Shown here: one piece after another, positions 6,148 to 35,971 of the stretch | How the letters are laid out: each line of letters begins with the position of its first letter | How positions within the stretch are numbered: position 1 is the first letter of the stretch | Assembly: GCA_963725875.1 (NCBI GenBank) | Contig: CAVRZZ010000003.1 | Span: 336,817 to 400,816 of the forward strand | Source: an uncultured Chloroflexia bacterium | GTDB lineage: Bacteria; Chloroflexota; Limnocylindria; Limnocylindrales; CSP1-4 | DNA length: 64,000 bases | Reading direction: 5' to 3' | The notes under the pieces: generated by a model | The model's input: the letters and a program-made list of their open reading frames with translations, nothing else | Told to the model about the DNA's origin: nothing | Databases searched by the model: none | Position numbers and translations under genes: made by a program

Positions 6148-6160
6148 CGGGAATCTCCTG

Positions 6161-6739
6161 TCAGCTCTGGGCGTCGAGGGGCGCCAGGCGAACGCTGCCG
6201 ATCACGACGGACACCGAGGTGCCGCGCTGGATCGCGCCGCCGGGGTTCGGGTAGAGGATGAAGTAGTTGCCACCGTCGAGGAGCGTGACCTTGTGCCGCA
6301 TCCCCGTCGGCGCGCGGACGACGGCCCCGCTCGACTCGACGAACAGCTCCGGCATGGCCGTCGCGTCGTGGAGGACGTGGGCCGCCTTCTCCTTGTCGGT
6401 GACCGTGAAGCGCAGGTCGATCATGCCCCCGGCCGCGCTGACCGCCACCAGGTTGACCCTGATGCCGTAGTCCTGCTCCATCTTCGCCGCGGACACGACG
6501 CGCGCCGCGGCGACATCGGCATCGGATTCGAGGCCGGTTCCCGCCGACCACGTCAGGCCGGCGGCCACGGCCATCGGCAGGATGAGGACGGCCGCGAGGG
6601 CCGCAATCCAGGTCCGTCGCCGCATGCCGCGTGGTGGGGTGGCCCCGGCCGGCTCGGGCGGAGCCGGCACGGGACCCTGGGCTTCCGGGACCGCAGCCGC
6701 GAGGCTGCGGTCCCGCTCGGAACGCTCGATGCTCGTCAT
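6161..6739 (-). CDS. Hypothetical membrane-anchored protein
   Basis: Single TM stretch 'WIAALAAVLILPMAVAAGL'. Sits between the Ig-repeat protein (4-nt gap) and the S8 protease (13-nt gap). The start may be the internal ATG near 6625. Confidence 0.45.
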   Translation of the reverse strand: MTSIERSERDRSLAAAVPEAQGPVPAPPEPAGATPPRGMRRRTWIAALAAVLILPMAVAAGLTWSAGTGLESDADVAAARVVSAAKMEQDYGIRVNLVAVSAAGGMIDLRFTVTDKEKAAHVLHDATAMPELFVESSGAVVRAPTGMRHKVTLLDGGNYFILYPNPGGAIQRGTSVSVVIGSVRLAPLDAQS

Positions 6740-6743
6740 GGCA

Positions 6744-9668
6744 CTACGGCCCGAAGAGCGGCGACACCGATCGCTTGGAGGCGAAGGCGTCGAAGTACAT
6801 CAGGATGCTGCTGCCGCCGCTGGTGACCGAGCCCAGGCGGACCGCTCCCACGGAGCCCGCGCTGGTCGTGGCCAGCGTCTGCGACACCGCACCATCGACG
6901 TAGAGCGCGAGCGTGCCCGGGTTGGGGCCGACGCTGCCCACGGCCTGCCACACCACCTCGATGCGGTGAGCCGCGTTCGTGACGTTGACCCACGCCGGGT
7001 TGGCAGTGGCGCCCACCTGGATCTGCACCTGCGTCTGCCCCGCACTGAGGCGGTACCGAACGTGGAACAGCTGGGTGCCGAAGGTGTTGGACGTCGCAGC
7101 AGCGAGGATGTCCTGGCCGCTGGACGCATTGGCACGGGGATTGAAGGAGAACTGGGCGTCGTACGTCGGCCATGCCGGGTTGGCGGCCGTGCCGAAGTTG
7201 TACTGGACGTAGTTGGTGTTGTTGCCCTGGGCCTGCAGGCCGCGGGCGCCAACGAGCGCCGCTGCAGTCGACACATTCAGGCGGTTGGTCGTGTTGGTGG
7301 ACCGGCTGGTCCAGCCCCACGGGGCGCCGCCCGTGTCGAAGCCGTTCGAGAAGATGGCGACCGCGACGAGGGACACGGTCGCGCTGCTGGTGGTCGTGCT
7401 CCAGTTGCCCGCCGCGTCACGGACGCGGACGCCCACCGTGTGGTTGCCCGTGGTGAGCGAGCCCGCAGGGATGGCGGCGGCCAGGCCGGCAAAGGGCGTC
7501 CCTCCGCCCGGCGCCGGAGCGGCCGTGTCGATCCAGTACTCGCCGCCGGCAACGCCGCTAGCGAGGCCCGCGACGGGCGGGTCGGCAGCGCCGTCTACCG
7601 TCACGTTGATGCCGCCACCGAGCGTCGGGTTGACGGCCGCAAGGGTGATGCCCGTGAACGTGGGCGCGGTCTTGTCGATGAGGAGGACGACGGAGGCCGT
7701 CGCACCCCAGTTGCCCACCGCGTCCCTGCCGTGGACGTAGATCGTGTGGTTGCCGGCAGTGAGCAGGTCGATCGTGGTGAGCGGGACGTCGGCGTAGCCG
7801 GTCTCGCTCGCGGCATTGAAGACGCCGTCGTTGGCGACGAACGGGAAGCCGGAGCCGTTGGCGCCGACGGTGTCGATGAAGCCCTCGCCGGCGGCGACGG
7901 TGCTGGTGGCGCTGCTGAAGGCCGCGCTGACGCGCACCGACGGGTTGCTGGTGCTCTGACCGTATTGCCCGTTGTTGGCGGCGGGCGGGTTGGTCACGAC
8001 GCCCGAGGTCGTCGGACCGGTGGCCACCACCTCCAGGGTGATCGTGGTGAAGGGACCCCAGTTGCCCGCTGCGTCCTGGGCATGGACCGAGACCACGCCG
8101 CTCTGGCCGGCCGGGATGGTCGCCGAGAGGCTGACGATCGGGGCCGTGTTGTTGCGAGCCACGGTGATGCCGGTGCCGTTTGCACCCGGCGTGCCGATGA
8201 AGTACTCGGCCGCGACAACGTTGCCGTTGCCGGTGGCCGCGTCGCTGGCGGTGCCACTGAGGGCGACGGAGACGGTCCCGCTGGACGGGTTCGGGTTGAG
8301 CACGAGCGCGCTCGTGGCGGGACCCGTCGTGTCGATCGTGAAGTTGGTGGAGCTGAAGGCGCCCCAGTTGCCAGCGGAGTCCTGGCCGTGGACGTAGACG
8401 GCATGCGAGCCGCTCGACAGCGAGCCGAGCGTGATCGAGGCGTTGACCGAGGCGGTCGGCGACCCGAACGTGCCCGACATCGCCGTGCCCGACCCAGCCG
8501 CGCCGGTGGTGTCGATGAAGTACTCGGCGCCCGTGACACTGCTATTGCCCGTGTCGACGTCGCTGACCGAAGCGGCCAGGGCGCCGGACGAGACGGTGAA
8601 GGCCACACCGCTCGTGAGCGGACCGACGGTGTCGCCCGTCGACGAGCCGCTCGGCGCGGCGTCGATGAAGGCGAGCATCCCGCCGATCCCGGACGCGGTG
8701 CTGTTGTTCAGGGTCATGCTCGCGTCGTAGATCGCGTACTTGGTGGAGACCGCGGTCGTCGCCGGAAGCGTCACGAGCACGTCGGCCGTCTGGCCCGGGG
8801 CGATCGTCTCGGCGACCATTCCCCGCGGGACGATCGGGCTGCCGTCCGCGGCGAGCACGGACTGGCGCAGGCCGAGCACCCCGATCGAGTGATGCTGGAT
8901 CCCCGCGTTGGCGTAGCGCAGCAGGAGCCTGTTGCCGGAGGTCACGTTGATCGCCGGGGCCGTGCCGGAGTACGCCACGCCGTTGAGCAGTGAGTACTTC
9001 GGCGCGAAGTACCGCAGGTCGACGGTCCACGGCGTGAGACTGTTGTTCAGGGTCGGGTCGACCTCACCGAGGACGACCATCGCCTCGTCACTGAACGCCG
9101 TGGCGGCATCGGCGTAGGCCTGGCCGGGAGCCCCGGCCGGCTGGACGACGAGGACGCCGTACAGGCCCATCGCCACCTGGTACTCCGAGCCGGGGATGAG
9201 CCCGGCCTCGTAGAGGTAGGTCCCGGGGGCGCCGGCGACGAATGTGTATGACGTGGAGCCGCCCGCCACCACCCCGGTCAGGTCCGGAGCCATCGCCTGG
9301 CCGTCGAAGAGGATCGACGTCGGCCGGGCAAGGTGGTTGACCAGGTTGACGGTGACGGTGTCGCCCGCGGTGGCGACGAGGACGGGACCCGGCAGGGTCG
9401 GGCTCCCGCCGTCGGTGGCGCTGAAGCCCCAGACCGTGACGTTCGCCGGTGTGCCGGGCAGCGCAGCGCCGGTAAGGCTGCCGGTCTCGGCCCACAGGTT
9501 GCAGGTGACGGTCACCGGCGTGGCACCGCCGGGAGCCGAGCACGCCGTCGAGGTGATCGGCCCGGCGGCAGCCGCCGCCCCCGGGATCAACAGCGCCGCG
9601 ACGAGCAGCGCCGGACCCAGGACCAGCGAGGAGAGGAGGGTTCGCTTCATCGTTCGATCCGATCTCAT
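6744..9668 (-). CDS. Secreted multidomain protein: N-terminal multicopper-oxidase-fold region, about five Ig-like repeats, C-terminal LamG/ConA-like domain
   Basis: ATG at 9668 has an SD (GAGGTAGGGGA) and a signal peptide 'MRSDRTMKRTLLSSLVLGPALLVAALLIPGAAAAA'. The N-terminal region resembles MCO domains but has no HxH copper motifs. Repeats of 'GAEYFIDTTG...HAVYVHGQDSAGNWG' follow. The C-terminus is Asn/Thr-rich and beta-rich. Confidence 0.75.
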   Translation of the reverse strand: MRSDRTMKRTLLSSLVLGPALLVAALLIPGAAAAAGPITSTACSAPGGATPVTVTCNLWAETGSLTGAALPGTPANVTVWGFSATDGGSPTLPGPVLVATAGDTVTVNLVNHLARPTSILFDGQAMAPDLTGVVAGGSTSYTFVAGAPGTYLYEAGLIPGSEYQVAMGLYGVLVVQPAGAPGQAYADAATAFSDEAMVVLGEVDPTLNNSLTPWTVDLRYFAPKYSLLNGVAYSGTAPAINVTSGNRLLLRYANAGIQHHSIGVLGLRQSVLAADGSPIVPRGMVAETIAPGQTADVLVTLPATTAVSTKYAIYDASMTLNNSTASGIGGMLAFIDAAPSGSSTGDTVGPLTSGVAFTVSSGALAASVSDVDTGNSSVTGAEYFIDTTGAAGSGTAMSGTFGSPTASVNASITLGSLSSGSHAVYVHGQDSAGNWGAFSSTNFTIDTTGPATSALVLNPNPSSGTVSVALSGTASDAATGNGNVVAAEYFIGTPGANGTGITVARNNTAPIVSLSATIPAGQSGVVSVHAQDAAGNWGPFTTITLEVVATGPTTSGVVTNPPAANNGQYGQSTSNPSVRVSAAFSSATSTVAAGEGFIDTVGANGSGFPFVANDGVFNAASETGYADVPLTTIDLLTAGNHTIYVHGRDAVGNWGATASVVLLIDKTAPTFTGITLAAVNPTLGGGINVTVDGAADPPVAGLASGVAGGEYWIDTAAPAPGGGTPFAGLAAAIPAGSLTTGNHTVGVRVRDAAGNWSTTTSSATVSLVAVAIFSNGFDTGGAPWGWTSRSTNTTNRLNVSTAAALVGARGLQAQGNNTNYVQYNFGTAANPAWPTYDAQFSFNPRANASSGQDILAAATSNTFGTQLFHVRYRLSAGQTQVQIQVGATANPAWVNVTNAAHRIEVVWQAVGSVGPNPGTLALYVDGAVSQTLATTSAGSVGAVRLGSVTSGGSSILMYFDAFASKRSVSPLFGP

Positions 9669-9685
9669 GGTCGTTCCCCTACCTC

Positions 9686-11089
9686 TCATTGCGGACAACT
9701 GTTGGGCAGGGGCGGATCGACCCGCGTGTAGGTGATCGGCCCGGTCATGTTCACGCCCCACGACGTGATCTGGTAGAGCGCGTGGTTGTGGGCGATGATG
9801 TAGAACTCGCCGCACTCGTTGAGCGTGGAGATGCCAGGCGGCATCGGCTCCGTGACGCCCAGGTACGGGCTGCCGCTGTAGAACATGCCGACGGTGAGGT
9901 TCTGCAGGTTCGGCTCGCTGGCAGGCACCGGGTTCGCCGGCGAGTAGTCCTCGTTGTCCCTCCAGTTGAACAGCACGTCCCAGGTCTGGCCGGGGCCGAT
10001 GTTCACGGAGAACTTGTCGAAGGACATGTCCTGGCCGGTCGGACCCTCGAGCGGTGCGCCGTCGCGGCCGATCACCTTGCCGTTGTTCCCGTGCGGATGG
10101 AACGGGTAGTCCTCGGTCCCGACGGACAGGTAGCGGTCGAGGGCCGGATCGGGGTTGGCCGCCGCGTCGTACGGGTGGATCGTCGCCAGCGAGCCGTACG
10201 GCTGGCTGGGCAGCCACGAGGCGAAGTTGTCGGCGATGCTGTCGGGGAACCCGCGGCCATTGATCAGCCAGTAGCGCGGGTGGTAGGTGTTCATGTTGAA
10301 GGCCTTGGTGCCCTTCAGGACCGCAGCGTTCAGGTACGGGTCGATCTCGGAGAGCAGGACCAGGAACTCGGTGTCAGGGTTGAACTTCGAGTCGACCCGG
10401 TCGTTGGCCCAGTCGGGGTGGTCCGCCGGCCGCACGATCAGCGCTCCGAAGAGGCCCATGCGCACCTGCACCTGCGGGCTCGAGAAGAAGCTCGAGCCGC
10501 TGGTCCGCTGCCCGCCGCCGCTCTCGTAGAGGAACGTGCCGGGCTTGGAGGCGACGAAGCTGTAGGTGACCGTGCCGCCGCCCGGCTGCGCGGCCTGCGC
10601 GAGCGAGGTGAGCGCCCCGCCGACGAACTGCGGCTGTGAGGGCACGCCGTCCGCGGTGACGTTCTCCTGGCCCGGGAAGATGATCGACACGGCCGGCGCG
10701 CTCTTCGGCGACGACGTCGTGAACGCGTTCTTCAGGATGACCGTGACGGTGTCGCCCTCGGTGACGCACAGCACGGGCCCCGGGTGCTGGAAGGGCCGGC
10801 TGCCCTCCGAGAAGCCCCACATGTACGCCGTGGTCCCGTCCGGCAGGTTGATGTACCCCGCCTTCGTCGTCAGCGTGAACGTCGGGTTCGGGCCGGCGCT
10901 TGTCGTGCAGGCGATGCCGGTCCGGTTCGCGGACTCCGTGGCCGCCAGGGTCGGCCGCACGGCCGCCGACGACAGCAGCACGCTGGAGACCAGGACCGAC
11001 GAGACCGCGAGCGCCAGCGCCGGGTGGGCGCGCGGGCGCGAGAATCGTCTCATCGTCATCACTCCGCTCTTCGCAAACGGTCTCATCAC
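9686..11089 (-). CDS. Multicopper-oxidase-like protein with degenerate copper sites
   Basis: 467 aa. A TAT-like 'MRRFSRP' is followed by a hydrophobic signal. The domain-1 HWHG position reads 'SIIFPGQ'. Domain 3 has 'HPFHPHG' and 'AHNHALYQ' in place of HCHxxxH, so the T1 Cys is Asn. Start ATG overlaps the upstream gene's stop (ATGA). Confidence 0.75.
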   Translation of the reverse strand: MMRPFAKSGVMTMRRFSRPRAHPALALAVSSVLVSSVLLSSAAVRPTLAATESANRTGIACTTSAGPNPTFTLTTKAGYINLPDGTTAYMWGFSEGSRPFQHPGPVLCVTEGDTVTVILKNAFTTSSPKSAPAVSIIFPGQENVTADGVPSQPQFVGGALTSLAQAAQPGGGTVTYSFVASKPGTFLYESGGGQRTSGSSFFSSPQVQVRMGLFGALIVRPADHPDWANDRVDSKFNPDTEFLVLLSEIDPYLNAAVLKGTKAFNMNTYHPRYWLINGRGFPDSIADNFASWLPSQPYGSLATIHPYDAAANPDPALDRYLSVGTEDYPFHPHGNNGKVIGRDGAPLEGPTGQDMSFDKFSVNIGPGQTWDVLFNWRDNEDYSPANPVPASEPNLQNLTVGMFYSGSPYLGVTEPMPPGISTLNECGEFYIIAHNHALYQITSWGVNMTGPITYTRVDPPLPNSCPQ

Positions 11090-12519
11090 AGGCCCCAGTC
11101 GTTCGGGTACTTCTGGGGTGCCAGGGCGGCGTTCGCCGGGTAGACGTGCACCTCGGTGCGCTGGCCCCCGCCGCCGGCCAGGTTGTCGGCCCGGATGTAC
11201 GTGCGGTTGTAGAGCACGTACGTGTCCGGGCCGGTCCCGCCCGAATGGGCCGGTGCCGTGAAGATCGCGTCGAAGCTCTCGCCGGCGCCCAGGGCGACGG
11301 TGTTCGTGGCGTAGCTCGAGTCGGTGTTGTCGCGGCCGCGGAGGTGGGTCGCGTCCCGGCCGACGACGTGCAGCTTGATGCCGGTGAGCGTCATCGCGGC
11401 TTCCTTGAAGCCGAGGTTGGCGAACCGCAGGAGCACCCGCTCACCCGCCTTGCACGTCACCAGGGACGACATCGGCTGGTTTCCGAGGTCGGCGCTCCGC
11501 GGCCCGGCCGGCGGGGTCAGGTCGTAGCTGCCGTCTCGCACGACCTCGTACGGGTAGGTCGCGTTCGGCAACCCGGTGTCGGAGAAGATCGCCCCGTTCG
11601 GCTCCAGGGTGTCGGGATAGACCCGCCCGTTGAGGAGGCTGAAGTCGGCGTGGTAGTCGCTCCACTCGGGGAGCTGGATGTGGGCGTCGGCCCAGTGGGC
11701 CTCCGCCCAGAGCTCGCTCAGGAACATCGCGTACTCGCGATCGAAGGCCGTCGACGCCGGATGGTTGACCCCGACACTGTCGTTGTAGACGTATCCGAGC
11801 GGGGCGCCCGGAGCCAGGTTGCCCCCGAGCCGGGCGACCGGTGCTCCGGCCGAGTTCCCCTGCTGGTCCTGGGCCGGCCGCACGAAGACGAGGCCGGTCA
11901 TCCCCATGTGCACGTGCTCCACGTCCTCGACGTGGCAGTGGAACATGTAGGTGCCGGGGTCGTGCGACTTGTACACGTAGGTGAAGGTCTGGCCCTGGGG
12001 GATCGACACCGAGCCGGTCGGCTCGCCGTCGAAGAACGGGATGACGTTCTTGAAGCCGTGCCAGTGGAGGGTGTGCGCGTCGAACAGGTCCGGGCGCTGG
12101 GCCAGGCCCACGTTCGTCAGCTGGATCCGGAACGTCGTCGGCGCGTACTCCGTGCCCAGAACAGCGGGGCGGAGTGCTGCGCCTTGTTCTTGAGCTGGTA
12201 CTGGTCGCCGTCGGGGAGGCCGTTCCGTTGGCGAACCCGAAGATGTAGTCGGTGCGCTTGGGCGGCGCGTAGGTGTCCGGGTGGAACACGCCGTAGGCGG
12301 CGGAGCTGATCGCTCGGGTCGGGCGGCAGGGAGATCCAGCCGTCCGTGCCCGACGAGCTTCAGGTCGGGTGGCCGGTCGGCCGCGAGGGCCCGGCCCGGC
12401 TGGAGGATGGTCCCCACCAGCCGGGGCCCGAGGCCCACGGCGGCGGTCGCCGCCGCGGTCAGCCCTCCGTACTTGAGCAGGTGCCGCCGGCTCAGCAGCA
12501 ACCTTCTCTGGTCGCTCAT
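11086..12519 (-). pseudogene. TAT-secreted multicopper-oxidase-like protein with apparent frameshifts in its N-terminal region
   Basis: Clear TAT signal 'MSDQRRLLLSRRHLLKYGGLTAAATAAVGLG'. Contains 'HTLHWHGF' and 'FHCHVEDVEHVHMGM' (HCH...H...M-like). Between ~12120 and 12340 plausible MCO sequence ('TDGWISLPPDPS', 'AYGVFHPDTYAPPKRTDYIFGFANG', 'QHSAPLFWA') sits in the other two frames. At least four frame changes are implied. This could equally be indel sequencing error. Confidence 0.6.
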
Positions 12520-12570
12520 GACGTTCTCTCCCTCGGCGACGATTGGACGGGTGGTTCGCGATCAGGCGTC

Positions 12571-15480
12571 TCACGGCAGGGTCCCGCCGCTGAAGTTGTC
12601 GACCCGGGCGTCGGCCGGGAGCTGGATGCCGATCCGGCCGCCGCCGGTGCCGAACGTCCAGGCGCCCGCGCCGGTGGTGGGGATGGTCACGGTGCCGACC
12701 AGCGTCGTGGTGGCGCCAGACGTCTTCCAGACGTTGACCGTGCCGGTCTCGAGAGCGACGGCAGTGAGCGTGTCGCCGATCGCGAACGTCGCCGCGAACG
12801 TGGCGCGGCGTGGTGAAGAGCGCACCGCTGTTGGTCGTCGTGGACACACGACCACGCTGCCGGTCCCGCGTAGCCCACGCGGATGAAGTTCGTCGGGTTG
12901 TTGGCCGTGCCGCCGCTCGCCTTGAGGATCAGGGTCGCTCGGGATGTTGCCGCCGACCGGCGCGTTGGCGAACGTGAACGCCGCGCCCTGGTGGGCCCCG
13001 AAGCCCGCGACCGCCGTTCCAGATCGCCTGGCCGAGCGCAGGTTCGCGAACGCCTGGTTGCCGTTGACCCGGATGCGGCGGCGCCGAGCGAGGTTCGACC
13101 TGGCTCCAGTTCGCGCCGAGCGTGTTCGCGTTGGCCCGGTTGAAGTTGTCGAGGATGGACATCGTCGGCAGCGGCGAGTCGGCGGCACGATCGTGTCCGT
13201 GTCGGTGGCGCTGTTGTTGGCCGCGGTCGGGTCGGTGATGCCACCCGGCGCCGCGACGGTGGCGGTGTTGACCAGAGTCCCGGCCGCGCTGGCGGAGAGC
13301 GTGGTCGTGGCGGTGAAGGTCGCGCTGCCGCCGTTGAGCAGGGTGACCGTGCCCGGTGCGGCTGTTGCCGCTGCCGGCCGCGGTGCAGCTCGACCCGGCC
13401 GAGGCCGTGCAGGTCCAGGTGCCGACGGTGAGCGACGGCCGGGAACGTGTCGGTCACCGGCGCGCCGTGACGGCCTCGGACCGGCGTTCGAGACGACGAT
13501 GGTGTAGCGTGACGGCGCCGCTCCGGCGGTGACGCTCGTCGCCCCGTCGGTCTTGGTGATGGAGAGGTCGGCCGACGGCGGGCGCGGCGATCTCGTCCGC
13601 GCCGACGTCGAAGCCTCCGAGTCGCCGGGCGAGCCTGGCCGTCGATGTCAGCGGTGGGTGCGGCCAGGGGCGTGGGCGGCTGCTGGTAGGCCGGCACCGC
13701 CTTGCTCGCCGCGCCGGCGTTGTACGCCGGCGACCCGGTGCTGAGGAGGTGGTAGTCGCCGAGGAGGCTCGGCGGGAGGTCGGCGGCGACGAGGATCGCG
13801 CCGACGAAGTTCGGGTTGGTCCGCCACGGGGCGAACGCCGAGCACCGTGTCGTAGGCGGCGACGACGAGCGGATCGGCCGACCGAGTTGGTCGGGCTCGA
13901 GGCGTACGGCGTTCGTGCCCGTCGTCTCTGCTGGAGGACCGAGTTGGTCGGCGACAGCAGGATCGCCGCCGTCGGCGACGCCGAGGTCCCAGTGGTTGGC
14001 GTCGGTCCGTCGCCGATGCCGGTCACGGCAGCGCCGAGCGCGGGTGCCCGCCCGGTTGTCCCAGAAGATGTTGTTGAAGAGCAGCGGGTTGCTGAAGAGC
14101 GGCGAGCCGGCCGGCAGCGTGGCCTGGAGCAGGGTGCTGTTCTGGCCGGTCGACAGGCCGGCCGGGGCCGGCTGAGCCGTTGCTGGTCACGGCCGTGGCG
14201 GTCGTGACGTTCTTCATGATCGTGTTGTTGTAGAACCGCACGTTCGGCGCGTCGTCGAGGGCGATGCCGCCGCCCTCGTGGGTCGACACGTTGTTGACGA
14301 TCATGTTGTTGTAGACGTTCATCGGGAAGTTGCCGGCCATCAGGAACCGGATCCCGCCGCCGTCGTCGTTGGCCAGGTTGGCCTGGATCAGGTTGTCGTA
14401 GATGTCGACCGGGCCGGAGCCCGGCGAGAGCGATCGCGGGGTCGGCCGGCAGCTCGCCGGCGACCATGATCCCGCCGCCCTCGTCGTACGACTGGTTGTA
14501 GTAGATCCGGTTGTCGGTGGATCGGAGCCGTTCGGGCTGAGGCCGTAGACGGACGAGGCCGCCGCCGTACTCGGCCGAGAAGTTGCCGCAGATGTCGTTG
14601 CCGGCGACCTCGTAGTTGTCGGCGCCGGCGAAGAGGCCGACACCGCCGGCCAGGTTGGTGCCGGCGTTGGCGATGATCCGGTTGTTGAGCGATCCGGACG
14701 TCCTCGTTGTGGTTGTTGGTGTCCGGCGCCGGCAGGTCCGGCGTCCCGATGCGGATCGTCCCGTACGTGCCGCCGTTGTTCTGGACCACGTTGTTCGTGA
14801 TCTGCAGGTTGCGGGCGTAGGCGTTGGCGAAGATCGCGCCGCCCTGGGTGACCAGGCCGGCCGGCAGGCCGGTGGGCCCGCCGCCGATCTCGTTGATGTT
14901 GCCGGGGAAGCCCTGCTGGTCGCCGCCGCGGAGGTCGAAGCCGTCGATCGACGGCGCCGTGGTGGCGCTGTAGGTGGCCGGGAAGGCATTGCGCCCGGCG
15001 CTCGGCACGAAGATCGAGATCACCGCGCCGTCGTAGACGGTCTGGTTGCCGTCCCACGTCAGGGCGCCGATCTTGGTGTACCAGTCGGTCAGCCACGGGG
15101 CTGTCGCCGCCGAAGGCGCCGCCGTCGATGATCGAGCCGCGCACGGTTGCCGTCGGGGCTGCCCGGGCCGACGCCCTGCAGCTTCACCTTGCGCGGAGAT
15201 GATCAGGTTCTCGTAGTACGCGCCGCGCGGGTTCTGCCGCGGGTTGGCGCTCGGGTTGTTCGGGTAGACCACCACCAGGGCGTCCCGGTTGTTGCCTCCC
15301 GCCACGTACGAGGCCGCGGCGTCCAGCGCGCGCTGGATCGCGTGGTCGGCCGCGGCCGGGAGCGTCTCAGCCGGCGTGAACCACCGCCCTGCGCTTGCCT
15401 TGGCCGCTGTGTAGCTCGGGTTGCTGGTCGGACCCACCTCGAAGAGCTGCGGGTTGTAGGACCCGCCGAATTCGATAGAA
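12571..15480 (-). pseudogene. Fragmented continuation of the upstream giant adhesin, or a separate gene: parallel beta-helix (NosD-like) repeats plus LamG-like C-terminal domain, broken by multiple frame changes
   Basis: Protein-like stretches are spread over all three minus frames: 'SIEFGGSYNPQLFEVGPTSNPSYTAAKASAGRWFTPAETLPAAADHAIQRALDAAASYVAGGNNRDALVVVYPNNP' (ORF 14388..15437), 'GPVDIYDNLIQANLANDDGGGIRFLMAGNFPMNVYNNMIVNNVSTHEGGGIALDDAPNVRFYNNTIMKNV' (ORF 14023..15144), 'RIIANAGTNLAGGVGLFAGADNYEVAGNDICGNFSAEYGGG', 'SILDNFNRANANTLGANWSQ' (ORF 12929..13162), and 'TVNVWKTSGATTTLVGTVTIPTTGAGAWTFGTGGGRIGIQL' (ORF 12571..13188). They are separated by Arg/Pro-rich nonsense. Confidence 0.5.
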
Positions 15481-18400
15481 GGTGAGGCCGTTGACCGTGC
15501 TCTTGCCGTTGGCGGACGTCACCTTCAGCTGGTGCGGACCCTGGCCGACGGACGGCGAGATCGTCGCGGTCACCGTGATCTGGGTGTCGTTCCACGTGGC
15601 CGTGGTGATCGGGGTGCCGTCCAGCGTCAGCTGGCCGGTGCCCTTGGCGGCGCCGAAGCCCCGGCCGTAGATCGTGAACGCCGGCTGCGTGCCGGTCGTG
15701 TACGGCCGCGAAACCGCATAGAGCTCCGGGGCGCGGGTCGCGGCAGTGCCCGCCGGGTCGTTCACCGAGCAGGAGACCGCCTGGAACGTCGTGGTGCCGG
15801 GCAGCTGGATCGTCACGCCGACCTGGGTCGGCGCCGTGTCGGCCGGGACGATGATGCCCGGCCAGGCCTCGAAGTCGGCCGCGATCGTCCGGAACTGCGG
15901 GTTGTAGTTGGGGTTGAGCCGGCCCGGGATCCCCGGGTCGTTGCCGACGAAGCGGTAGACGTTGCCGCACACGCCCGACGGGGTCGGGCAGTTGATCCGG
16001 TCCGTCGACGGCAGGAGGACGTCGAACAGGCCGTTGTAGTCGGTCTCCACCGTGGTGATCAGGCGGTTGGCGAAGTCGTAGATGCCGACCGGGGTGAACG
16101 GAAGGCCCGCCTTCTCACCGTAGAGCAGCGACTTCGGGTCGGTCGAGAAGTTGAGGTCGTCGACGTTGTAGGCGAAGAAGCGGCCCGGGAGCGGCACGTC
16201 GGTGAAGACGTTGAACATCGGGACGACCGACTTGCCGTTCTGGAGCGTGACGAGCTTCGTGTCGCACAGCGGCTTGGCCTGGCCCTCGAAGGGCGAGCCG
16301 CCGAGCCGGTCGGCGAACGTCGGGTTGTCGGTGGGCGTCGAGGCAGCCACGGCGACCGTGGCGCTGCCGATGCCGGACGGGTCGACGATCGTGGTCGCCG
16401 GGTAGACGTCGATGCCGGTGGGGTCGTTCGCGACGTCGACCTGGTGCAGAGGGCCGACGCACGCGGGCGGCGGGACCTGCGGGACGAAGCTGTCGCCCGT
16501 CGCGATGTTGATGTCCTCTTCGCGGGTGACCTTGTAGACCGGATCGCCGTTGTTGTCCGTCACGCCCGGGAGGTCGACATGGACGAGGTAGTCGGCCGCG
16601 GGGAGCGCCGTGAAGGTGCCGCCGACACAGACCGGGTTGGCCGGGTCGGTGGCGTCGAGCGTGCCGTCGAAGCAGCCGTCGCCGAAGCCGTAGTTGCCGT
16701 CGACGGCGGCGCCGAAGTTGGCGTCGGCGGTCCCCTGGTCCGTGGCGTACGTCCCGAACTGGACGCCCATCAGCGGACCCTCGAGGCAGCCCTTGCCGTC
16801 GCCGACCGGCAGGACCTGCTGGTCCGCCGGGTTGGCGAGAGGCGTCCCGTCGACGTCGCGGGCGATGCAGTCCGTCGGCCGCTGCCAGGTCTCGGTGACG
16901 TACGTGTTCAGGAGCTTGCCCTGGGCATACGACCCGTCGGCCGGGTTGAGCGCGTAGTCGCCGTTCGCGTCGCACGGCACGGTGCCGTACTCCGGGCTGC
17001 CTTCGAGCGGGCAGTCGACCGGGGCGTAGAGGTTGACCGTCAGCCCGGAGACGCCGGGCTGCCAGTCCTCCGCCGCCGCGTACCGCGGATCGAGCTCGTT
17101 GCGGGTCGTGTCGTAGCTGACCGATCCGACGATGCCGCCGTTCTGCGGGTCGACCCCGTTCGCGCCGGTCGGGTCGTAGGCATGGACACCCCAGTCGAGG
17201 GTGCCCGAGAGGCCGATGATCGGCAGGACGCTGACGTCGACGCCCGCACCGAGCACGGTCGTGGGCGTCGGCTGGTTGTCGGCCTGGTAGGTGACGCCGG
17301 TCGTGTAGTAGCGATCGTCGTAGGCCTCGAGGACGAGCCACTCCGTCAGCGGGTAGGCGTTCTCCATCACGTAGTAGCCGCTGGCGTTGGTGGTGACCAG
17401 GGTCGCGCCGCGATCCATCAGCGAGTTCTCGCGCTTGCGGAGCGTCAGCGTGATGTTCGGGACGCCCTGCTCTCCGGCGTCGCGCCGTCCGTTGCGGTTC
17501 GCGTCGTTGAAGACGTAGCCGTCGAACTTGGTGAACCAGCCGGTCAGGGGCCGGACCCCCATGTCGACGGTCTCGCCGTTGGCGACGGTCACGTTGAGCA
17601 GGTCGAGGATGTAGTTCTGGGGCTCGTCCCAGTACGTGATCGTGTAGCTGCCGGCGGGGACGTTCGGGATCGTGAACGTGCCGTCGGCGCCGCCGCGACC
17701 CATCCACACGGCCGTGTCGCCGTTGTTGAGGTCGGACAGGGTGATCCACGGCTTGTCGATCGGCTTGTCGACCTTGCCGCCGCAGAGGCCGCCCCAGATG
17801 GTGCCCGGCAGGCAGGCCCCGCCCGTGGTCGGGACGTAGACCTTCATGGCGTCGATGACGCCCTTGATCGTGCCCGTGCCTCCGGCCCACGAGTCGCCGT
17901 AGGACTTCGACGCGGTGGCGGGATGCGTCCAATGGCTGGCGGCCGGTCCCGGGACGAAGCCGAAGATCTGGGCCGGGAACGGCTCGCCGGCGACGACGAA
18001 CTCCGTGTCGAGGCCGGTCGAGCCCTCCATCTCCCAGGCGTCCCAGTCGTGGTTGCCCTCGAGGGTCGTCGTCTGGACCCAGTTCGAGCCCGTCGGCGGG
18101 ACGGCGGACAGGGCATACCGGTTCGGCCCCAGGTTCGGGATCGTCAGGAGGCCCGGGTCGAGCTGCGGGTCCGAGTAGAGCACGCCGTCGGTGCCGGTCC
18201 AGGTGTTCGTGCTCGGGTGGTAGGTTGCGTCGACGACGCCGTCCATGTTGATGTCGCCGGACAGGCACTTGCCGCCCAGGTGGGTGACGATCGGCGCGTT
18301 GTCGGCGTCGAGGACGATCTCGTCGCCCGGGTCCTGGACCCCGTTGTTGTTCAGGTCGTTGAACTGGTACTTGGTGCACAGCGGGTTGCCGAAGACGTCG

Positions 18401-19125
18401 GTCGTGACCTGCCCGATGTAGTCCGCGATGAAGCCCTGGAACCCGGTCAGGCCGTCCTCGCCGGGGTCGTACTGGCCGTTGGCCGAGGTGATGTCCGCGA
18501 AGACCTGCGCCTTGATGGTCGCGGTCGGCAGGGGGCTCGGCTGCAGGGGCACCTCGACCACACCGGGTGCCTCCATCGGGATCGTGAACGGGGTCCCGTC
18601 GAGCTTGAATCCGTCGGCCAGCACGGAGATGAGGTACCGGCCCGGCGCCAGGTTGGAGATCCCGGTCGTGGTGTTGAGGGTCGTCTCGTCACCCTGCGCG
18701 GCGACCGGCGCGGAGCTCGCAAGCCCAGCGATCGAGGTCCACGTGCAGGAGTCCGGGTAGGCGGTGTTTGGCTGCGTATGGGCCGCGTCGAGCCACGCGG
18801 AGCAGTCCCCGCCCGGGTTCGCGTTCCGCGCGGTGTTCTGGCCGGTGTTGTCCTTGTTGATGATCCACTTGTACGTCGCGACGGGGTCGCCCTCGGTCAC
18901 GCCGGCGCCGCCGAGCGCCCTGGGCTCCGTGCGGGCGGCCTTGACCGCGAGCTTGATGGTGCTGGTCGGGGCGGCCGGCGCCGCCGCCGGGGCGGCGGCG
19001 GTGGTGATCGGAGCGGCCTGTGCCACCGGCACGGCCAGCTGCGTCACGATCATCGCCGCGCTGGCGAGCCAGATGCCCAGGAACCGGAGCGTCCGGTGCC
19101 GCTGGCCAAATCGCGAATGACCCAT
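15367..19125 (-). CDS. Giant secreted cell-surface protein with SdrD-B/CnaB-type and carboxypeptidase-regulatory-like repeats (adhesin-like)
   Basis: ATG at 19125 has an SD (GGAG 9 nt upstream) and a signal peptide 'MGHSRFGQRHRTLRFLGIWLASAAMIVTQLAVPVAQAAP'. One uninterrupted ~1250-aa frame with Asp/Asn/Gly/Thr-rich beta-repeats such as 'FDGYVFNDANRNGRRDAGEQGVPNITLTL' and 'TFTIPNVPAGSYTI'. The frame stops at 15367. The +1 frame continues from ~15475 ('...LTF|SIEFGGSYNPQLF...') into beta-helix sequence, which suggests a frameshift into the next feature. Confidence 0.75.
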   Translation of the reverse strand: MGHSRFGQRHRTLRFLGIWLASAAMIVTQLAVPVAQAAPITTAAAPAAAPAAPTSTIKLAVKAARTEPRALGGAGVTEGDPVATYKWIINKDNTGQNTARNANPGGDCSAWLDAAHTQPNTAYPDSCTWTSIAGLASSAPVAAQGDETTLNTTTGISNLAPGRYLISVLADGFKLDGTPFTIPMEAPGVVEVPLQPSPLPTATIKAQVFADITSANGQYDPGEDGLTGFQGFIADYIGQVTTDVFGNPLCTKYQFNDLNNNGVQDPGDEIVLDADNAPIVTHLGGKCLSGDINMDGVVDATYHPSTNTWTGTDGVLYSDPQLDPGLLTIPNLGPNRYALSAVPPTGSNWVQTTTLEGNHDWDAWEMEGSTGLDTEFVVAGEPFPAQIFGFVPGPAASHWTHPATASKSYGDSWAGGTGTIKGVIDAMKVYVPTTGGACLPGTIWGGLCGGKVDKPIDKPWITLSDLNNGDTAVWMGRGGADGTFTIPNVPAGSYTITYWDEPQNYILDLLNVTVANGETVDMGVRPLTGWFTKFDGYVFNDANRNGRRDAGEQGVPNITLTLRKRENSLMDRGATLVTTNASGYYVMENAYPLTEWLVLEAYDDRYYTTGVTYQADNQPTPTTVLGAGVDVSVLPIIGLSGTLDWGVHAYDPTGANGVDPQNGGIVGSVSYDTTRNELDPRYAAAEDWQPGVSGLTVNLYAPVDCPLEGSPEYGTVPCDANGDYALNPADGSYAQGKLLNTYVTETWQRPTDCIARDVDGTPLANPADQQVLPVGDGKGCLEGPLMGVQFGTYATDQGTADANFGAAVDGNYGFGDGCFDGTLDATDPANPVCVGGTFTALPAADYLVHVDLPGVTDNNGDPVYKVTREEDINIATGDSFVPQVPPPACVGPLHQVDVANDPTGIDVYPATTIVDPSGIGSATVAVAASTPTDNPTFADRLGGSPFEGQAKPLCDTKLVTLQNGKSVVPMFNVFTDVPLPGRFFAYNVDDLNFSTDPKSLLYGEKAGLPFTPVGIYDFANRLITTVETDYNGLFDVLLPSTDRINCPTPSGVCGNVYRFVGNDPGIPGRLNPNYNPQFRTIAADFEAWPGIIVPADTAPTQVGVTIQLPGTTTFQAVSCSVNDPAGTAATRAPELYAVSRPYTTGTQPAFTIYGRGFGAAKGTGQLTLDGTPITTATWNDTQITVTATISPSVGQGPHQLKVTSANGKSTVNGLTFYRIRRVLQPAALRGGSDQQPELHSGQGKRRAVVHAG

Positions 19126-19193
19126 TGCCTGGTACTCCTCGTTCCTGATTGCCCGTCGAATGCCGGCCCCGGAGGCGCGGCGGTCACCTGTGC

Positions 19194-19841
19194 TCATCGA
19201 TCGCCTCCGGCGTGGGTGGTTCCCGCGGTCGCGGGAGACTCGAACGGCCCATCCGACGCGGCCAGCGCCGGTGCGGATGCCTGGGCCGGGTGCATGGATG
19301 GGGCCGCCCGCCACGCGCCTCGCCAGGGCATGCCGGCGAGCAGCGAGATGGGGGCGAGGACGAGAACCGCCGCCTCCAGCGCATACAGGGCGTCGGCCGC
19401 GAGGTCGTCGAGGAGGCTGACGCCCGCCTCTTCCTCTGCGCCGAACAGCAGGCCGTGAAGCTGGTTGCCGGGGATGCTGAGGGCGGCGAACAGCAGTGCG
19501 GCGAGCACCCCCCAGAGGGCCATGGTCGTCAACGACGCGCGCTCCCCCGGCTCCGTTGGTCGGAGCCTGGCGACGAGGAGCGCGGCGATGACGACCGCGA
19601 CGGCCCCGAACGGCACGGCCAGCGCCGTGTCACGGAGCCAGTGCAGAACTGGCGGCAGCTCGTGGTGCTCGTGCACGCCCGCGTGGACGAGCTGCAGAAG
19701 GGCGATCGGCACGGCCGCGAGCAGCCACGCGTACACGACCACCCGGCCCGGCAGCAGGCGGAACCCCGCGCCGGCAGAACCCTCGCCGGGTTCAGGCGCG
19801 CGAGCGCGGGCGTCGACCTGGTCCATCATCGTCGCGGTCAT
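19194..19841 (-). CDS. Hypothetical polytopic membrane protein
   Basis: 215 aa with about four hydrophobic TM segments. Lies directly upstream of the giant adhesin on the same strand. No recognised domain. Confidence 0.4.
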   Translation of the reverse strand: MTATMMDQVDARARAPEPGEGSAGAGFRLLPGRVVVYAWLLAAVPIALLQLVHAGVHEHHELPPVLHWLRDTALAVPFGAVAVVIAALLVARLRPTEPGERASLTTMALWGVLAALLFAALSIPGNQLHGLLFGAEEEAGVSLLDDLAADALYALEAAVLVLAPISLLAGMPWRGAWRAAPSMHPAQASAPALAASDGPFESPATAGTTHAGGDR

Positions 19842-21790
19842 TGGCCATCTCCCTGCTCGGCCCTGGTCGGGTCGCTGACACCTGGTGTTGGGGTTGGGGT
19901 TGGGTCGAATTGGGTCACGGGCCAGCTCACGGTCACGCGGACCACGACCGGCTCGCCGCCGGCCGCCGTGATCGACCCATCGATGGCGCTCATCAGGTCC
20001 AGGACGAGGAGGTACTCGCCGGGCAGGTCGGGCGCCGTCAGGCGGAGGGAGACGCGCTCAGTGGCTCCCGGGGCGAGGTCCAGCTTCGCCCACGCCGCCG
20101 CCGTCTCCGGCGCCGACGTCGCCAGGTCGAGGCGGACCCAGTGCCCGACGAGCAACGCCTTCGGGTCCGCCGGGGCGGCGTCGAACTCGTCGGACGAAAC
20201 GGTGGCCGGCGGCGCGACCCACGGCACGGCGCCGCTGTTCGAGACGGCGACCGGGAGTTCGATGGTGGACCCCGTCGCCAGGTCGAGGTGGTTCGGGGCG
20301 CTGATCGACGCCGAGAGCGGCCTCGTCACCCGGACCATCACGGCAGGCACGGGCGCCTGGGTCGTGGCCGGGAACGCGGCTCCCTCGGGATCATGGACGG
20401 TGGTCACCAGGCGGTACAGGCCCGGGGCATCCGGCGCGACGATGCTGGCCGTCAGGCGCCGCTTGCCCGACGTCACGTCCGCGAGCACCACGACCGCGCC
20501 GAGCACCTCCGGAGTCACGAGCGGCGTCACGGATGGCGCCTCGATCGGGACGGCCAGGGGCCCGGCCGGGGTCGGGGACGGGGCGTCCACCGCGGCCGAG
20601 GTCGGGGCCGGGGCCGACGTGGCGGCCGGGATCGGGGCCGGGGCGTCCACCGCGGCCGGGGCCGGGGCCGGCGCGTCGGCCGGGATCGGGGCCGGGGCGT
20701 CCACCGCGGCCGGGGTCGGGACCGGGGCGTTCACCGCGATCGGATCCCACCGGACGCCCAGGCCGAGCGATGCGACCGGATCGGTGCCCGGCTGGGAGAA
20801 CGTGACGACGAGCTCGACCGACGTGCCGGCGACCGGGATCCCGCGCAGGCGGACGGACTCGACGGTCGGCGGGATCCGCGGCTCGGGGGTCGGGAGCGCC
20901 GCCGGGCTGGCCCCGGCCGTGCCCGGGTCGGCGCGCAGGGCGGCTCCCCGGGCGACCTCGCCGGCGCGCAGGTCGGCCCGCGTCACGAGGGAGCGGTAGA
21001 ACTGGCTGCGGGGCCGGGTCGGGTCGAGGAGCGCCGTCAGGCCCGGGGTCCGGACGCTGGGGAAGGCGATGACGTGGTCGTGGAAGGTGGGCGCGGCCCG
21101 CCAGATCCCCTCGACCGTCCCCTTCCCGGCGAGGATCGCCTCGACGTAGTAGGCCGGGCCGAGGTACCCGTCGGCGATGACCGCCGAGGCCCCCGCGGCC
21201 AGGAACCCCGCCGCGAAGTTGTCGACCCGCTGCCGGGCGACGTCGAGGGTCCCCTCGGGCAGGCCCGGCTCCGAGTTGCCCGAGGCGTAGCACAGGTGGG
21301 AGAGGACGACGACGGCGTTGGGGGCGAGGGTCACCGAGCGGGCCAGGTGCCACTCGCCGAAGTACTGGTGGGCCACGTCGTCGACGCCGGCCACCGGGTT
21401 GAGGCCCAGGCCGTCCTGGGTCCGCGGGTTCAAGGTCCGGCTGTAGCGGCTGGGCCAGCCGTTGCCGTGGCCCAGGTAGACGACGACCGACGCGCCGGCC
21501 AGGGCGGCCCTGGCGGCCTTCCACGTCGCGTCCGGGGAGTAGACCGTGACGACGTCGTCGGTGAACCGGCGCGCCGCGGCGGCGGCCTTCTCCGCGTCGG
21601 CCCGGTAGCTGTCCGTCAGCGCGCCCACCGGGCCGACGATGATCGCCACCCTGGGAGCCGCGGCCCGGACGCCCGGCTGCGCGAAGGGGGCGACGCCGAA
21701 GAGCATCGCGAGCGCCAGGAGCACGACGATCGACAGGCGGGGACCGAGGCGCCGAGCCGCGCGGCTCTGGTCGCCGTGAACGACCTCCAT
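19838..21790 (-). CDS. Secreted protein, paralog A: N-terminal caspase-like (clan CD-like) His/Cys domain, Ala/Pro-rich linker, C-terminal Ig-like domains
   Basis: Signal peptide after the ATG at 21790 ('MEVVHGDQSRAARRLGPRLSIVVLLALAMLFGVAPFA'). Domain blocks 'RVAIIVGPVG', 'VVVYLGHGNGWPS', 'HQYFGE', 'VVLSHLCYASGNSEPG'. About 60% identical over the N-terminal domain to the CDS at 25863-27734. The peptidase assignment rests only on the spacing of the GHG and CxxG motifs. Confidence 0.65.
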   Translation of the reverse strand: MEVVHGDQSRAARRLGPRLSIVVLLALAMLFGVAPFAQPGVRAAAPRVAIIVGPVGALTDSYRADAEKAAAAARRFTDDVVTVYSPDATWKAARAALAGASVVVYLGHGNGWPSRYSRTLNPRTQDGLGLNPVAGVDDVAHQYFGEWHLARSVTLAPNAVVVLSHLCYASGNSEPGLPEGTLDVARQRVDNFAAGFLAAGASAVIADGYLGPAYYVEAILAGKGTVEGIWRAAPTFHDHVIAFPSVRTPGLTALLDPTRPRSQFYRSLVTRADLRAGEVARGAALRADPGTAGASPAALPTPEPRIPPTVESVRLRGIPVAGTSVELVVTFSQPGTDPVASLGLGVRWDPIAVNAPVPTPAAVDAPAPIPADAPAPAPAAVDAPAPIPAATSAPAPTSAAVDAPSPTPAGPLAVPIEAPSVTPLVTPEVLGAVVVLADVTSGKRRLTASIVAPDAPGLYRLVTTVHDPEGAAFPATTQAPVPAVMVRVTRPLSASISAPNHLDLATGSTIELPVAVSNSGAVPWVAPPATVSSDEFDAAPADPKALLVGHWVRLDLATSAPETAAAWAKLDLAPGATERVSLRLTAPDLPGEYLLVLDLMSAIDGSITAAGGEPVVVRVTVSWPVTQFDPTPTPTPGVSDPTRAEQGDGQ

Positions 21791-22099
21791 TGCCCGCGAC
21801 GAACCGCGCAGCAACCACCCCGTCTCGCCACGTCCGGTCGTGGCCGGCCCACCCAGGCGCAACCTGCAACTCCCCTGCGCCGCCGCGGCTCACCCGGCAG
21901 GTGGCCCCCCGGCCACCGTCGGCGCCGGGTGTCATCCGCGGCGGTATCGCACGTCCGGATGCTGCACGCGCCGGGGGGCAGTGAGCATCGGGGCCGCTCT
22001 GCATTCGACCCCGGGTGGGGCCCCGGAACCCGCCGCGGCTCGACCCGGTTTCGCTGGGGGTCAAGACCTGAGGCCGTGGGCCCGAAGCGGGCCGACGCC

Positions 22100-35681: not shown

Positions 35682-35971
35682 CAGCCCGACCGTCGCTCTT
35701 CCAGGACCACGTCGACGATGCTCCTGGCCTCGCGGGGCCGAGGCGCGGGCGAGCGGAGGAGCTCGACCGGCGGTGCGGCGCGGCCGACCCGCACGGCGCC
35801 GGCCCGTTCGAGACGCGCGAGGCGCCCGGCCGGGTCCGGCCCCACCGCTGCCGGCTCGAGACGCGCGACCACGACCCCGCGGTCTGTGACGAGAACGCTC
35901 TCGCCGGCCCGGACGTGGTCGACATAGGCGCTCAGGCCGTTCTTGAGCTGGCTGATCGAAGCGGTCTTCAT
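35678..35971 (-). CDS. Type II antitoxin (Phd/YefM-like), VapB partner
   Basis: 'MKTASISQLKNGLSAYVDHVRAGESVLVTDRGVVVARLE', 97 aa. 4-nt overlap with vapC. Confidence 0.7.
   Translation of the reverse strand: MKTASISQLKNGLSAYVDHVRAGESVLVTDRGVVVARLEPAAVGPDPAGRLARLERAGAVRVGRAAPPVELLRSPAPRPREARSIVDVVLEERRSGW

Follow-up and report, generated by a model that had tools for sequence, protein, structure and literature searches.

Gene content of the locus

The window, by which we mean the whole stretch of 64,000 nt analyzed here, carries on its minus strand a cluster of four genes, a giant secreted-protein gene and three multicopper-oxidase-like (MCO-like) genes (Table 1). The gene order of this cluster is identical in L081, the locus encoding the intact sister P0002 (2,160 aa), and the cluster is conserved in several phyla, among them Chloroflexota and Actinomycetota. 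Of 80 related loci, most encode the ortholog of the giant gene as a single open reading frame (ORF) of ∼1,900 to 2,350 aa. After frame correction, the giant gene was 81 to 84% identical to P0002, which is an intact JGI homolog, and MCO-like gene 1 was 66 to 73% identical to intact homologs of 450 to 500 aa. No same-species relative was available, as the best non-self match in a database of 5.8 billion proteins was 81% identical.

Based on Pfam searches, the corrected giant protein consists of a signal peptide, SdrD_B/prealbumin-like Ig folds, TIG, a right-handed beta-helix, DUF11, and a C-terminal jelly-roll-like domain. The original prediction that a giant adhesin is joined here to beta-helix sequence was right, in that the two form one continuous gene for a protein of ∼2,100 to 2,300 aa in the orthologs. 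The domains match those of an SdrD B-like/IPT-TIG/pectin-lyase-like beta-helix/DUF11 (TIGR01451) gene accompanied by three MCO genes, in the same order as in L081; we found no characterized member of such a gene cluster. Compared with NCBIfam, the three MCO-like proteins scored at best 20 to 51 bits against cutoffs of 296 to 615 bits and could not be assigned to CueO, CopA, laccase, or NirK; their family membership was evident only at the level of Pfam cupredoxin domains.

Table 1. Coordinates of genes, domains, and frame disruptions in the window.
Feature	Position	Strand	Description
S8 peptidase gene break	~4548		Extra G (+1) in PT-repeat linker
MCO-like gene 3	6744..9700	-	~985 aa, intact; single GC3 phase; Pfam Cu-oxidase domains; last gene of the four-gene cluster
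MCO-like gene 2	9686..11053	-	Intact; single GC3 phase; exact 455-aa public product P0127
MCO-like gene 1	11086..12519	-	TAT signal, cupredoxin domains, HWHG and HCHxxxHxxxxM motifs (Pfam); intact except for four 5'-end indels
Frameshifts in MCO-like gene 1	12145..12351	-	+1 at ~12351, +1 at ~12311, -1 at ~12222, +2 at ~12145
Probable error-rich span	12145..15471		3,327 nt; all 31 disruptions, ~1 per 107 nt; boundary between giant gene and MCO-like gene 1 lies inside the span
Giant secreted-protein gene	12571..19197	-	~2,197 aa after frame correction; as deposited, truncated at 15367
Further frameshift sites in giant gene	12808..15194	-	n = 26, after the first at 15468
DUF11 (PF01345) domain	13200..13569	-	Pfam on corrected protein, E = 8.5e-12, profile positions 1-113 of 114
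First frameshift and GAATTC	15468..15473	-	One extra T, 'cga atT c ggc'; relatives cgg atc ggc; protein YRI, then GGSYNP after the junction

Frame disruptions within the cluster

The frameshift-aware protein-to-DNA alignment that had been proposed for this region was run against intact orthologs with a dynamic program of our own, and the frame hops were confirmed in both genes. The intact ortholog P0002 served as the reference for the giant gene. L002 was unusable as a reference past ∼13170 because its C-terminal domain differs, and P0002/L081 was used instead. At least ten hops had been predicted within ∼3.4 kb; they are present there, but the number was an undercount, as the alignment placed 31 frame disruptions (27 in the giant gene and 4 in MCO-like gene 1) between 12145 and 15471. 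We regard 31 as the best estimate from these sequence comparisons; a conservative count would be ∼24, made up of ∼20 giant-gene sites that recur across references and the 4 sites in MCO-like gene 1.

Against P0002, the giant-gene shifts fall at 15468, 15194, 15148, 15090, 14687, 14554, 14522, 14431, 14175, 14036, 14007, 13961, 13879, 13839, 13622, 13588, 13470, 13436, 13354, 13184, 13099, 13040, 13015, 12945, 12865, 12854, and 12808. Nineteen of these are +1 nt, four +2, two −1, and two −2, and most sites have conserved flanking codons. When the frameshift penalty was made stricter, seven independent intact references each gave 14 to 23 shifts in the region and consistently none upstream. All 27 lie in the 3′ 43% of the gene, with none in the 3.7 kb upstream; the probability of this under uniform placement is 0.43^27.

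The four shifts in MCO-like gene 1 were agreed on by four references (L002, P0129, P0130, and P0132). They add up to +3, so that a 477-aa ORF remains open with ∼69 residues out of frame. Four hops had been placed inside 12120 to 12340; three of them do lie there, and the fourth (∼12351) falls 11 nt outside. The shifts stay within the first quarter, and the three quarters of the gene downstream of them are perfectly conserved. Taking both genes together, 26 insertions stand against 5 deletions (∼85% insertions), mostly +1, which amounts to a small-indel rate of ∼1% over the 3.3-kb span with single-base insertions predominating.

A reference-free view was given by a GC3 phase plot and a hidden Markov model (HMM), which divided 12159 to 15475 into 16 phase segments (median, ∼150 nt), compared with segments of mostly 0.3 to 3.6 kb in the remainder of the window. 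We found no events in 15480 to 19197 by frameshift-aware alignment and none in 6744 to 12144, where each gene keeps a single GC3 phase. The density of disruptions is thus ∼500-fold above background (31 events in 3.3 kb versus 1 detected across the other ∼60 kb). That one outside event, the insertion in the S8 peptidase gene, qualifies the claim that the disruptions are confined to this region, which otherwise was nearly right. The cluster disregards gene structure and spans a stop codon, an intergenic spacer, and a start codon. Two further stretches of GC3 phase hops, at 35251 to 36907 and 51860 to 52448, were rejected as candidates because real small genes lie there, a VapBC-like pair in the first and a small gene preceding that of a UbiB-like kinase in the second. 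The other phase changes checked in the window were ordinary gene boundaries.

The frame junction predicted at ∼15475 was located at ∼15470 and is a single extra T. The EcoRI site beside it had been considered a noteworthy rarity; GAATTC occurs 2 times in the window versus 3.45 expected by chance, which is not statistically unusual, and the inserted T itself makes this site, so its presence is uninformative and a by-product of the first inserted base. We rejected the idea that the region is a cloning fragment on the same two grounds and because the other end of the region has no such site.

Character of the disrupted sites

Inspection of the individual sites in alignment to L001, L002, L003, and L005 indicated that the inserted bases lie mostly outside homopolymer runs. 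Extension of a neighboring identical base cannot explain about half of the +1 events, and there were no long homopolymers at the sites. Site-by-site inspection also revealed no shared motif, self-BLAST and Tandem Repeats Finder gave nothing relevant in the window that would indicate a repeat or paralog as the cause, and the GC content of the affected region is not extreme. The sharp limit of the disruptions to 3.3 kb in an otherwise clean 64-kb window requires a special local cause, and no repeat or composition anomaly accounts for it.

Homopolymer indels are the classic consensus error of Nanopore sequencing. We rejected this specific model because the inserted bases are mostly outside runs; their position weakens the case for a classic homopolymer error and leaves a consensus error of another kind unaffected. 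We also rejected a model in which both alleles of a synonymous third-position single-nucleotide polymorphism are retained, since 15 or 16 of the 19 +1 sites are compatible with it versus an estimated ∼55 to 65% by chance, which is not significant. Codons ending in T precede 5 of the 19 +1 sites (background, 2.5%), and insertion of a random base fits equally well.

Recoding by programmed ribosomal frameshifts, or several short genes, independent or overlapping, that use different frames, would also produce hops between frames. High-GC DNA keeps long ORFs open in all frames, and several ORFs of 200 to 500 aa can be drawn here. However, the orthologs carry identical residues in one uninterrupted ORF, the conserved protein runs exactly through each shift without start or stop signals, and the raw ORF fragments are mostly Arg/Pro-rich out-of-frame translation without domain matches. 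With 31 sites in 3.3 kb, none of them conserved in relatives and no motif in common, we consider the chance of this explanation to be vanishingly small.

Coding constraint after frame correction

The deposited gene calls are compatible with genuine decay, in which the giant gene and MCO-like gene 1 have been inactivated and gather indels under relaxed selection. Large surface-protein genes are frequent targets of gene loss, and the frameshifts in the deposited sequence do shorten the calls. Public protein P0001 has 1,252 aa rather than ∼2,200 and terminates in an out-of-frame tail. P0128 has 341 aa rather than ∼470 and covers only approximately the C-terminal 71% of the 477-aa ORF; judging from this length, its start presumably lies close to 12110, immediately after the shifted part.

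The corrected reading frames do not have the properties of decaying genes, however. There were no stops in the 957 codons of the corrected affected part of the giant gene, and corrected MCO-like gene 1 was likewise free of in-frame stops. The erosion of codon bias typical of pseudogenes was absent, with GC content at the three codon positions of 0.60/0.56/0.960 in the affected part versus 0.62/0.51/0.958 upstream. In a relative-rate test, the corrected window protein and the intact sister P0002 were about equally similar to outgroups (75.7/76.1, 78.8/79.5, 76.3/76.3, and 60.3/60.2%); of the seven outgroups, one showed a gap in identity of 1.7 points, and for the other six the gap did not exceed 0.7 points. 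A three-way codon test with the DNA of L081 gave the same number of window-specific amino acid changes per codon upstream and in the affected part, whether the outgroup was L002 (0.055 and 0.055) or L003 (0.050 and 0.050), and the L081-specific changes in this test were 0.053 to 0.070. There was a marginal excess of window-specific changes at codon positions 1 and 2 in the affected part (65/121 versus 92/214 upstream; approximately P = 0.06 by a rough hand calculation). We attribute it either to ambiguous base removal beside the shifts or to a small number of substitution errors.

Base substitutions usually exceed indels several-fold. On that basis, 31 indels would predict ∼150 to 300 substitutions, several nonsense codons, and a drop in identity of 10 to 19 points, all of which are absent; we saw no excess of lineage-specific change in amino acids or nucleotides. 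The event spectrum also differs from that expected of pseudogenes, in which, as Mira, Ochman and Moran reportedly described in 2001, deletions prevail. Nor are the lesions spread over whole genes, given their restriction to one part of each. We therefore consider true pseudogenes highly improbable. The absence of stops, the unchanged GC3, and the lack of excess lineage-specific change suggest instead that intact, selectively maintained genes lie beneath the indels.

Frame correction also restored the DUF11 domain, which no raw ORF fragment matched. The domain spans five shift sites, three inside it (13470, 13436, and 13354) and two flanking it (13588 and 13184). Because a complete domain is restored across several shift sites, this result supports the reading of the shifts as errors.

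Disrupted loci in related long-read genomes

The Microflora Danica metagenome-assembled genomes (MAGs) were assembled with metaFlye from Nanopore reads only and received one round of Medaka (PMC12313526). Other loci from these MAGs with the same gene cluster also carry insertion-dominated frameshifts, at different positions. L080 has 22 shifts (14 of +1, 5 of +2, 3 of −2, and none of −1), confirmed by the reference-free GC3 HMM; L060 has five of +1, L005 three of +1 and one of −2, and L062 three of +1 and one of +2. When we classified the loci by data type and set this against ORF integrity, ∼7 of 32 Nanopore MAG loci were broken versus at most 1 of ∼35 short-read or isolate loci covering the whole gene.

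This recurrence bears on a further explanation, namely that one episode of mutagenic repair or recombination, for instance error-prone synthesis, placed many insertions in ∼3.3 kb almost instantaneously and too recently for substitutions to have followed. Such an event would explain why the boundaries are sharp, why only indels are seen, and why decay is absent. We know of no bacterial process, however, that inserts single bases at a rate of ∼1% over kilobases of non-repetitive sequence and leaves no substitutions. Independent long-read MAGs also show the pattern, at other positions, which points to the method and not to biology, and the isolated insertion at ∼4548 is consistent with a background error process. 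We consider real instantaneous mutagenesis highly improbable. Scarcely more probable is a broader biological reading, in which the indels or the underlying read heterogeneity reflect a hotspot of very recent localized insertion mutagenesis or intense strain-level allelic diversity in soil. If it were true, the frameshifts in L080, L060, L005, and L062 would be real population variability of the locus and not only a matter of sequencing depth.

Discussion

The original prediction framed the region as either a decaying locus or a stretch of poor consensus. The choice was well put, and decay is the option that the evidence speaks against, as there are no stops, codon bias is kept, and neither a substitution excess nor a deletion bias is seen. 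From the sequence comparisons, the frame hops are very probably consensus or assembly errors in the public MAG rather than mutations of the organism. Two intact genes would underlie these errors, affected in the 3′ part of the giant gene and the 5′ part of the TAT-exported MCO-like gene.

The closest relatives of the window are Nanopore MAGs from Microflora Danica, and the source contig probably belongs to a long-read-only metagenome assembly without short-read polishing. R10.4 consensus is near-finished only at ∼40× coverage (PMC9262707), and polishing, either guided by a reference or with short reads, removes long-read indel errors (PMC9262707, PMC12007338). As for the local cause, the 3.3-kb stretch may have had very low effective read depth, or its polishing may have failed, a guess to which we would give about half of the weight. 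About a third would go to coexisting strain alleles of a variable surface-protein region, collapsed into a mosaic consensus, and some other failure of the pipeline is possible. Collapsed allelic variants are documented to cause apparent frameshifts, with false ORF truncations arising from nearby variants and length-variable repeats (PMC8445201); the documented case is a diploid eukaryote, whereas strain heterogeneity in this contig is hypothesized. It is plausible here because close relatives differ in a C-terminal domain that lies within the affected region.

The apparent frameshifts, truncated gene calls, and protein sequence conserved beneath them resemble the indel errors of long-read (Nanopore/PacBio) data. 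Unlike in the usual form of these errors, the events here are concentrated locally and are single-base insertions outside homopolymers instead of classic homopolymer deletions. The multiple frameshifts and truncated but recognizable ORFs are also found in bacterial pseudogenes, such as those of Mycobacterium leprae, Rickettsia, and recent host-restricted pathogens. The locus differs from these in having no nonsense codons, relaxed constraint, loss of codon bias, or deletion bias and in that its events ignore gene boundaries.

The value of this result is mainly practical. The deposited calls in this region (the 1,252-aa truncated protein, junk ORFs, and the 341-aa MCO fragment) would be artefacts that, if uncorrected, would inflate pseudogene counts, conceal the DUF11 domain, and put false protein families into databases. 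Long-read MAG contigs can carry sharply local error clusters amid clean sequence that are invisible to average-quality metrics; a GC3 phase scan, or frameshift-aware alignment combined with a relative-rate test, can tell such clusters from true pseudogenes without recourse to the reads. If the hops are errors, as seems very probable, the surface-protein/MCO block is best regarded as four intact genes in a widely conserved cluster and not as a decaying block.

Frame disruptions in the window

Owing to the high GC content of the window (∼74%; third-codon-position GC [GC3], ∼0.95), GC3 marks the reading frame clearly, and frames were traced without a reference by a sliding GC3 plot and two phase HMMs. 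By plot and HMMs, genes nearly everywhere in the window held a single GC3 phase (for instance, 15476-19105, 9700-11087, and 6741-9699), and positions 12159 to 15475 held 16 phase changes, with a median segment of ∼150 nt. Thus, the frame hops are genuine and tightly localized, and no reference protein is needed to see them. Two further short phase segments, which could be mistaken for frameshifts, are accounted for by a small VapC/PIN-like gene and the Phd/VapB-like antitoxin gene ahead of it.

Features of the window discussed here, with strand in brackets
Feature	Position	Length	Content
Big gene	19197..12571 (-)	∼2,197 aa, frame corrected	Secreted; SdrD_B/prealbumin-like folds, TIG, pectin-lyase-like beta-helix, DUF11, C-terminal jelly-roll-like domain
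MCO#1	12519..11086 (-)		Next after big gene; MCO-like; TAT signal, HWHG and HCHxxxHxxxxM copper motifs
MCO#2	11053..9686 (-)		After MCO#1; MCO-like
MCO#3	9700..6744 (-)		After MCO#1; MCO-like
Error-rich span	12145-15471		Frame-disrupting events
S8 peptidase gene	4176-6201 (-)		Subtilisin-like
Glutamate-decarboxylase-like piece	3661-3960 (-)	∼100 residues	Last residues, without N-terminal part
Toxin-antitoxin-like pair	35250-35930 (-)		VapC/PIN-like (35250-35681), Phd/VapB-like

The big gene was aligned to intact relatives with a purpose-written affine-gap protein-to-DNA dynamic program that has explicit +1, +2, -1, and -2 nt moves. There were 22 shifts against the locus L002 and 27 against P0002 (a JGI homologue), all within 15468-12808, and none in the upstream 3.7 kb in either alignment. 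Under a stricter penalty with seven independent intact references, 14 to 23 shifts were kept, ∼20 positions recurred between references, and the upstream count was zero every time. In MCO#1, the first of three multicopper-oxidase-like (MCO-like) genes, four references agreed on shifts at ∼12351 (+1), ∼12311 (+1), ∼12222 (-1), and ∼12145 (+2). The original prediction of a cluster of frame hops here, for which frameshift-aware alignment was one of the proposed checks, was therefore confirmed by both the GC3 phase scan and the alignments. In total, the error-rich span contains 31 events (27 in the big gene and 4 in MCO#1), 26 of them insertions and 5 deletions (21 of +1, 5 of +2, 3 of -1, and 2 of -2). 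Nucleotide alignment with four relatives showed the inserted bases to be single and mostly outside homopolymers.

The junction between the predicted giant adhesin and its beta-helix sequence had been described as lying next to an EcoRI site that is rare in such DNA. The frame break there stands and consists of one extra T (cga atT c ggc; protein ...TFYRI/GGSYNP..., with the break at the slash), which itself creates the GAATTC. The site carries no signal, as the count of GAATTC is statistically ordinary (2 in the window versus 3.45 expected). In the related locus L001, a single +2 (an extra CG in a CGCG run, ∼13539) lies ∼60 nt downstream of the homologue of the window's first frameshift; the sites differ, and their closeness looks coincidental.

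Intact relatives of the four-gene cluster

When the upstream 1,165 aa were searched against one genome per species, 80 related loci emerged, the nearest of them in Chloroflexia MAGs from the Microflora Danica project (L001, L002, and L005; 78 to 82% identity); isolates of Actinomycetota and members of other phyla carry more distant ones. The adhesin and the beta-helix/LamG region form one ORF of ∼1,900 to 2,350 aa in most of these loci, as the predicted joining of the two implied. Next come two MCO-like genes, each of ∼460 aa, and a third of ∼1,000 aa. The protein database also held the intact P0002 (2,160 aa; 81 to 84% identical), whose contig, L081, carries the complete cluster. These uninterrupted orthologues contradict recoding or a series of separate small genes, to which we give practically no credence.

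The four-gene order is conserved in Chloroflexota, Actinomycetota, Acidobacteriota, Myxococcota, and some Proteobacteria MAGs (80 genome loci plus the JGI contig), a distribution that suggests horizontal spread. No characterized member of the cluster was found among L001 to L081, and neither the big gene product nor the MCO-like proteins reach the cutoff of any characterized NCBIfam family. In L001 and L002 (15706-16342), the giant protein ends in a C-terminal domain that differs from that of the window, P0002, and L005 and resembles the C-terminal domain of MCO#3 (window 6737-7362; ∼71% nucleotide identity), an apparent domain swap between cluster genes among close relatives. In L077, the giant gene has an additional segment of ∼1.5 kb (∼12335-13824), with window position 16608 aligning to both flanks; the segment may have arisen by duplication or as an inserted element.

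Frame-corrected sequence

Base substitutions usually exceed indels several-fold, so decay that left 31 indels would be expected to bring well over 100 substitutions, along with several nonsense codons and a marked drop in identity and GC3. None of these signs was seen in the corrected sequence. Its 957 codons contained no stop, and GC at the three codon positions was 0.60/0.56/0.960 in the affected part versus 0.62/0.51/0.958 upstream. Identity to outgroups was essentially equal for the corrected protein and its intact sister P0002 in every case (for example, 75.7 versus 76.1% for L002, 78.8 versus 79.5% for L003, and 76.3% for both with the outgroup protein P0008). In three-way codon comparisons with L081 DNA, window-specific amino acid changes per codon were the same upstream and in the affected part (0.055 and 0.055 with outgroup L002; 0.050 and 0.050 with L003), and L081-lineage changes were 0.053 to 0.070. 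DUF11 became full length after correction (E = 8.5e-12; profile positions 1 to 113 of 114), spanning several shift sites, and had no match in any raw ORF fragment. The frame-corrected sequence thus behaves as a gene under full purifying selection.

The events also ignore gene structure, covering the last 43% of the big gene and the first quarter of MCO#1; the rest of MCO#1, three quarters of the gene lying downstream of the shifts, is conserved. Bacterial pseudogenes show a deletion bias, the opposite of the insertion bias found here. Of six features tested that define true pseudogenes, five were absent, and we consider true pseudogenes very unlikely.

Similar disruptions in other loci and elsewhere in the window

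The Microflora Danica MAG locus L080 hops frame every ∼300 to 400 nt throughout its four-gene cluster (10086-23253). Its giant gene has 22 shifts (14 of +1, 5 of +2, 3 of -2, and none of -1), in agreement with the reference-free GC3 HMM; here, the same insertion-dominated artifact extends over a far longer stretch than in the window. By the same alignment method, shifts were found in L060 (five +1), L005 (three +1 and one -2), and L062 (three +1 and one +2), and in all four loci they lie at positions other than the window's. L002 is intact, as are almost all loci from short-read assemblies or isolates. One recent, local burst of insertion mutagenesis would accord with the absence of decay, but it has no known mechanism and is undercut by finding the pattern again in other assemblies, leaving it extremely improbable.

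Within the window, the S8 peptidase gene has an extra G at ∼4548, which changes frame in a (PT)n linker (ccg acc G ccg acg); the C-terminal beta-sandwich-like domain (...YWYTVTSTAAGPVSATW...GTYTVYFYAGG...) is then read in the other frame as far as a stop at 4176. This +1 is of the same insertion type as the cluster and is consistent with errors of this kind occurring at a low background level. The glutamate-decarboxylase-like piece (...VFAFTLRDDVRNFSAFDVSNAVRERGWQVPAYTFPANRTDLAALRVVVKRGFSHD...) shares an open frame with the out-of-frame tail of the peptidase ORF and represents either the remnant of a gene or a junction introduced by assembly.

Origin of the indels and annotation of the locus

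We regard it as highly probable that the 31 indels are a local consensus failure in a long-read metagenome assembly. The public record that matches the window follows the deposit pattern of the Microflora Danica MAGs, which are Nanopore-only metaFlye assemblies with one Medaka round (PMC12313526), and R10.4 consensus is near finished only from ∼40x coverage (PMC9262707). It is important to note that the non-homopolymer, insertion-rich spectrum is unlike classic Nanopore error and counts against the simplest version of this explanation. Neither repeats, nor an anomalous composition, nor a pattern of restriction sites was found in the window to explain the restriction to 3.3 kb. The stretch may have been backed by very few reads or left unpolished. 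Alternatively, coexisting strain alleles may have been collapsed, which is plausible because the C-terminal domain of the big protein varies even among close relatives and collapsed allelic variation creates apparent frameshifts (PMC8445201); a test for retention of both SNP alleles was not significant.

The public calls P0001 (big gene), P0127 (MCO#2), and P0128 (MCO#1) all lie on one public contig of 814,498 nt, present in NCBI and ENA, to which the window corresponds. P0001 is truncated at 1,252 aa and includes an out-of-frame tail, and P0128 (341 aa) covers only about the C-terminal 71% of its ORF. Since the four MCO#1 shifts sum to +3, the naive 477-aa ORF remains open with ∼69 wrong residues; this ORF and P0128 are both wrong, in different ways. 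Biologically, the cluster of frame disruptions is not a real feature; it is of use as an error flagged in a public MAG, and the proper annotation of the locus is an intact cluster of four genes.
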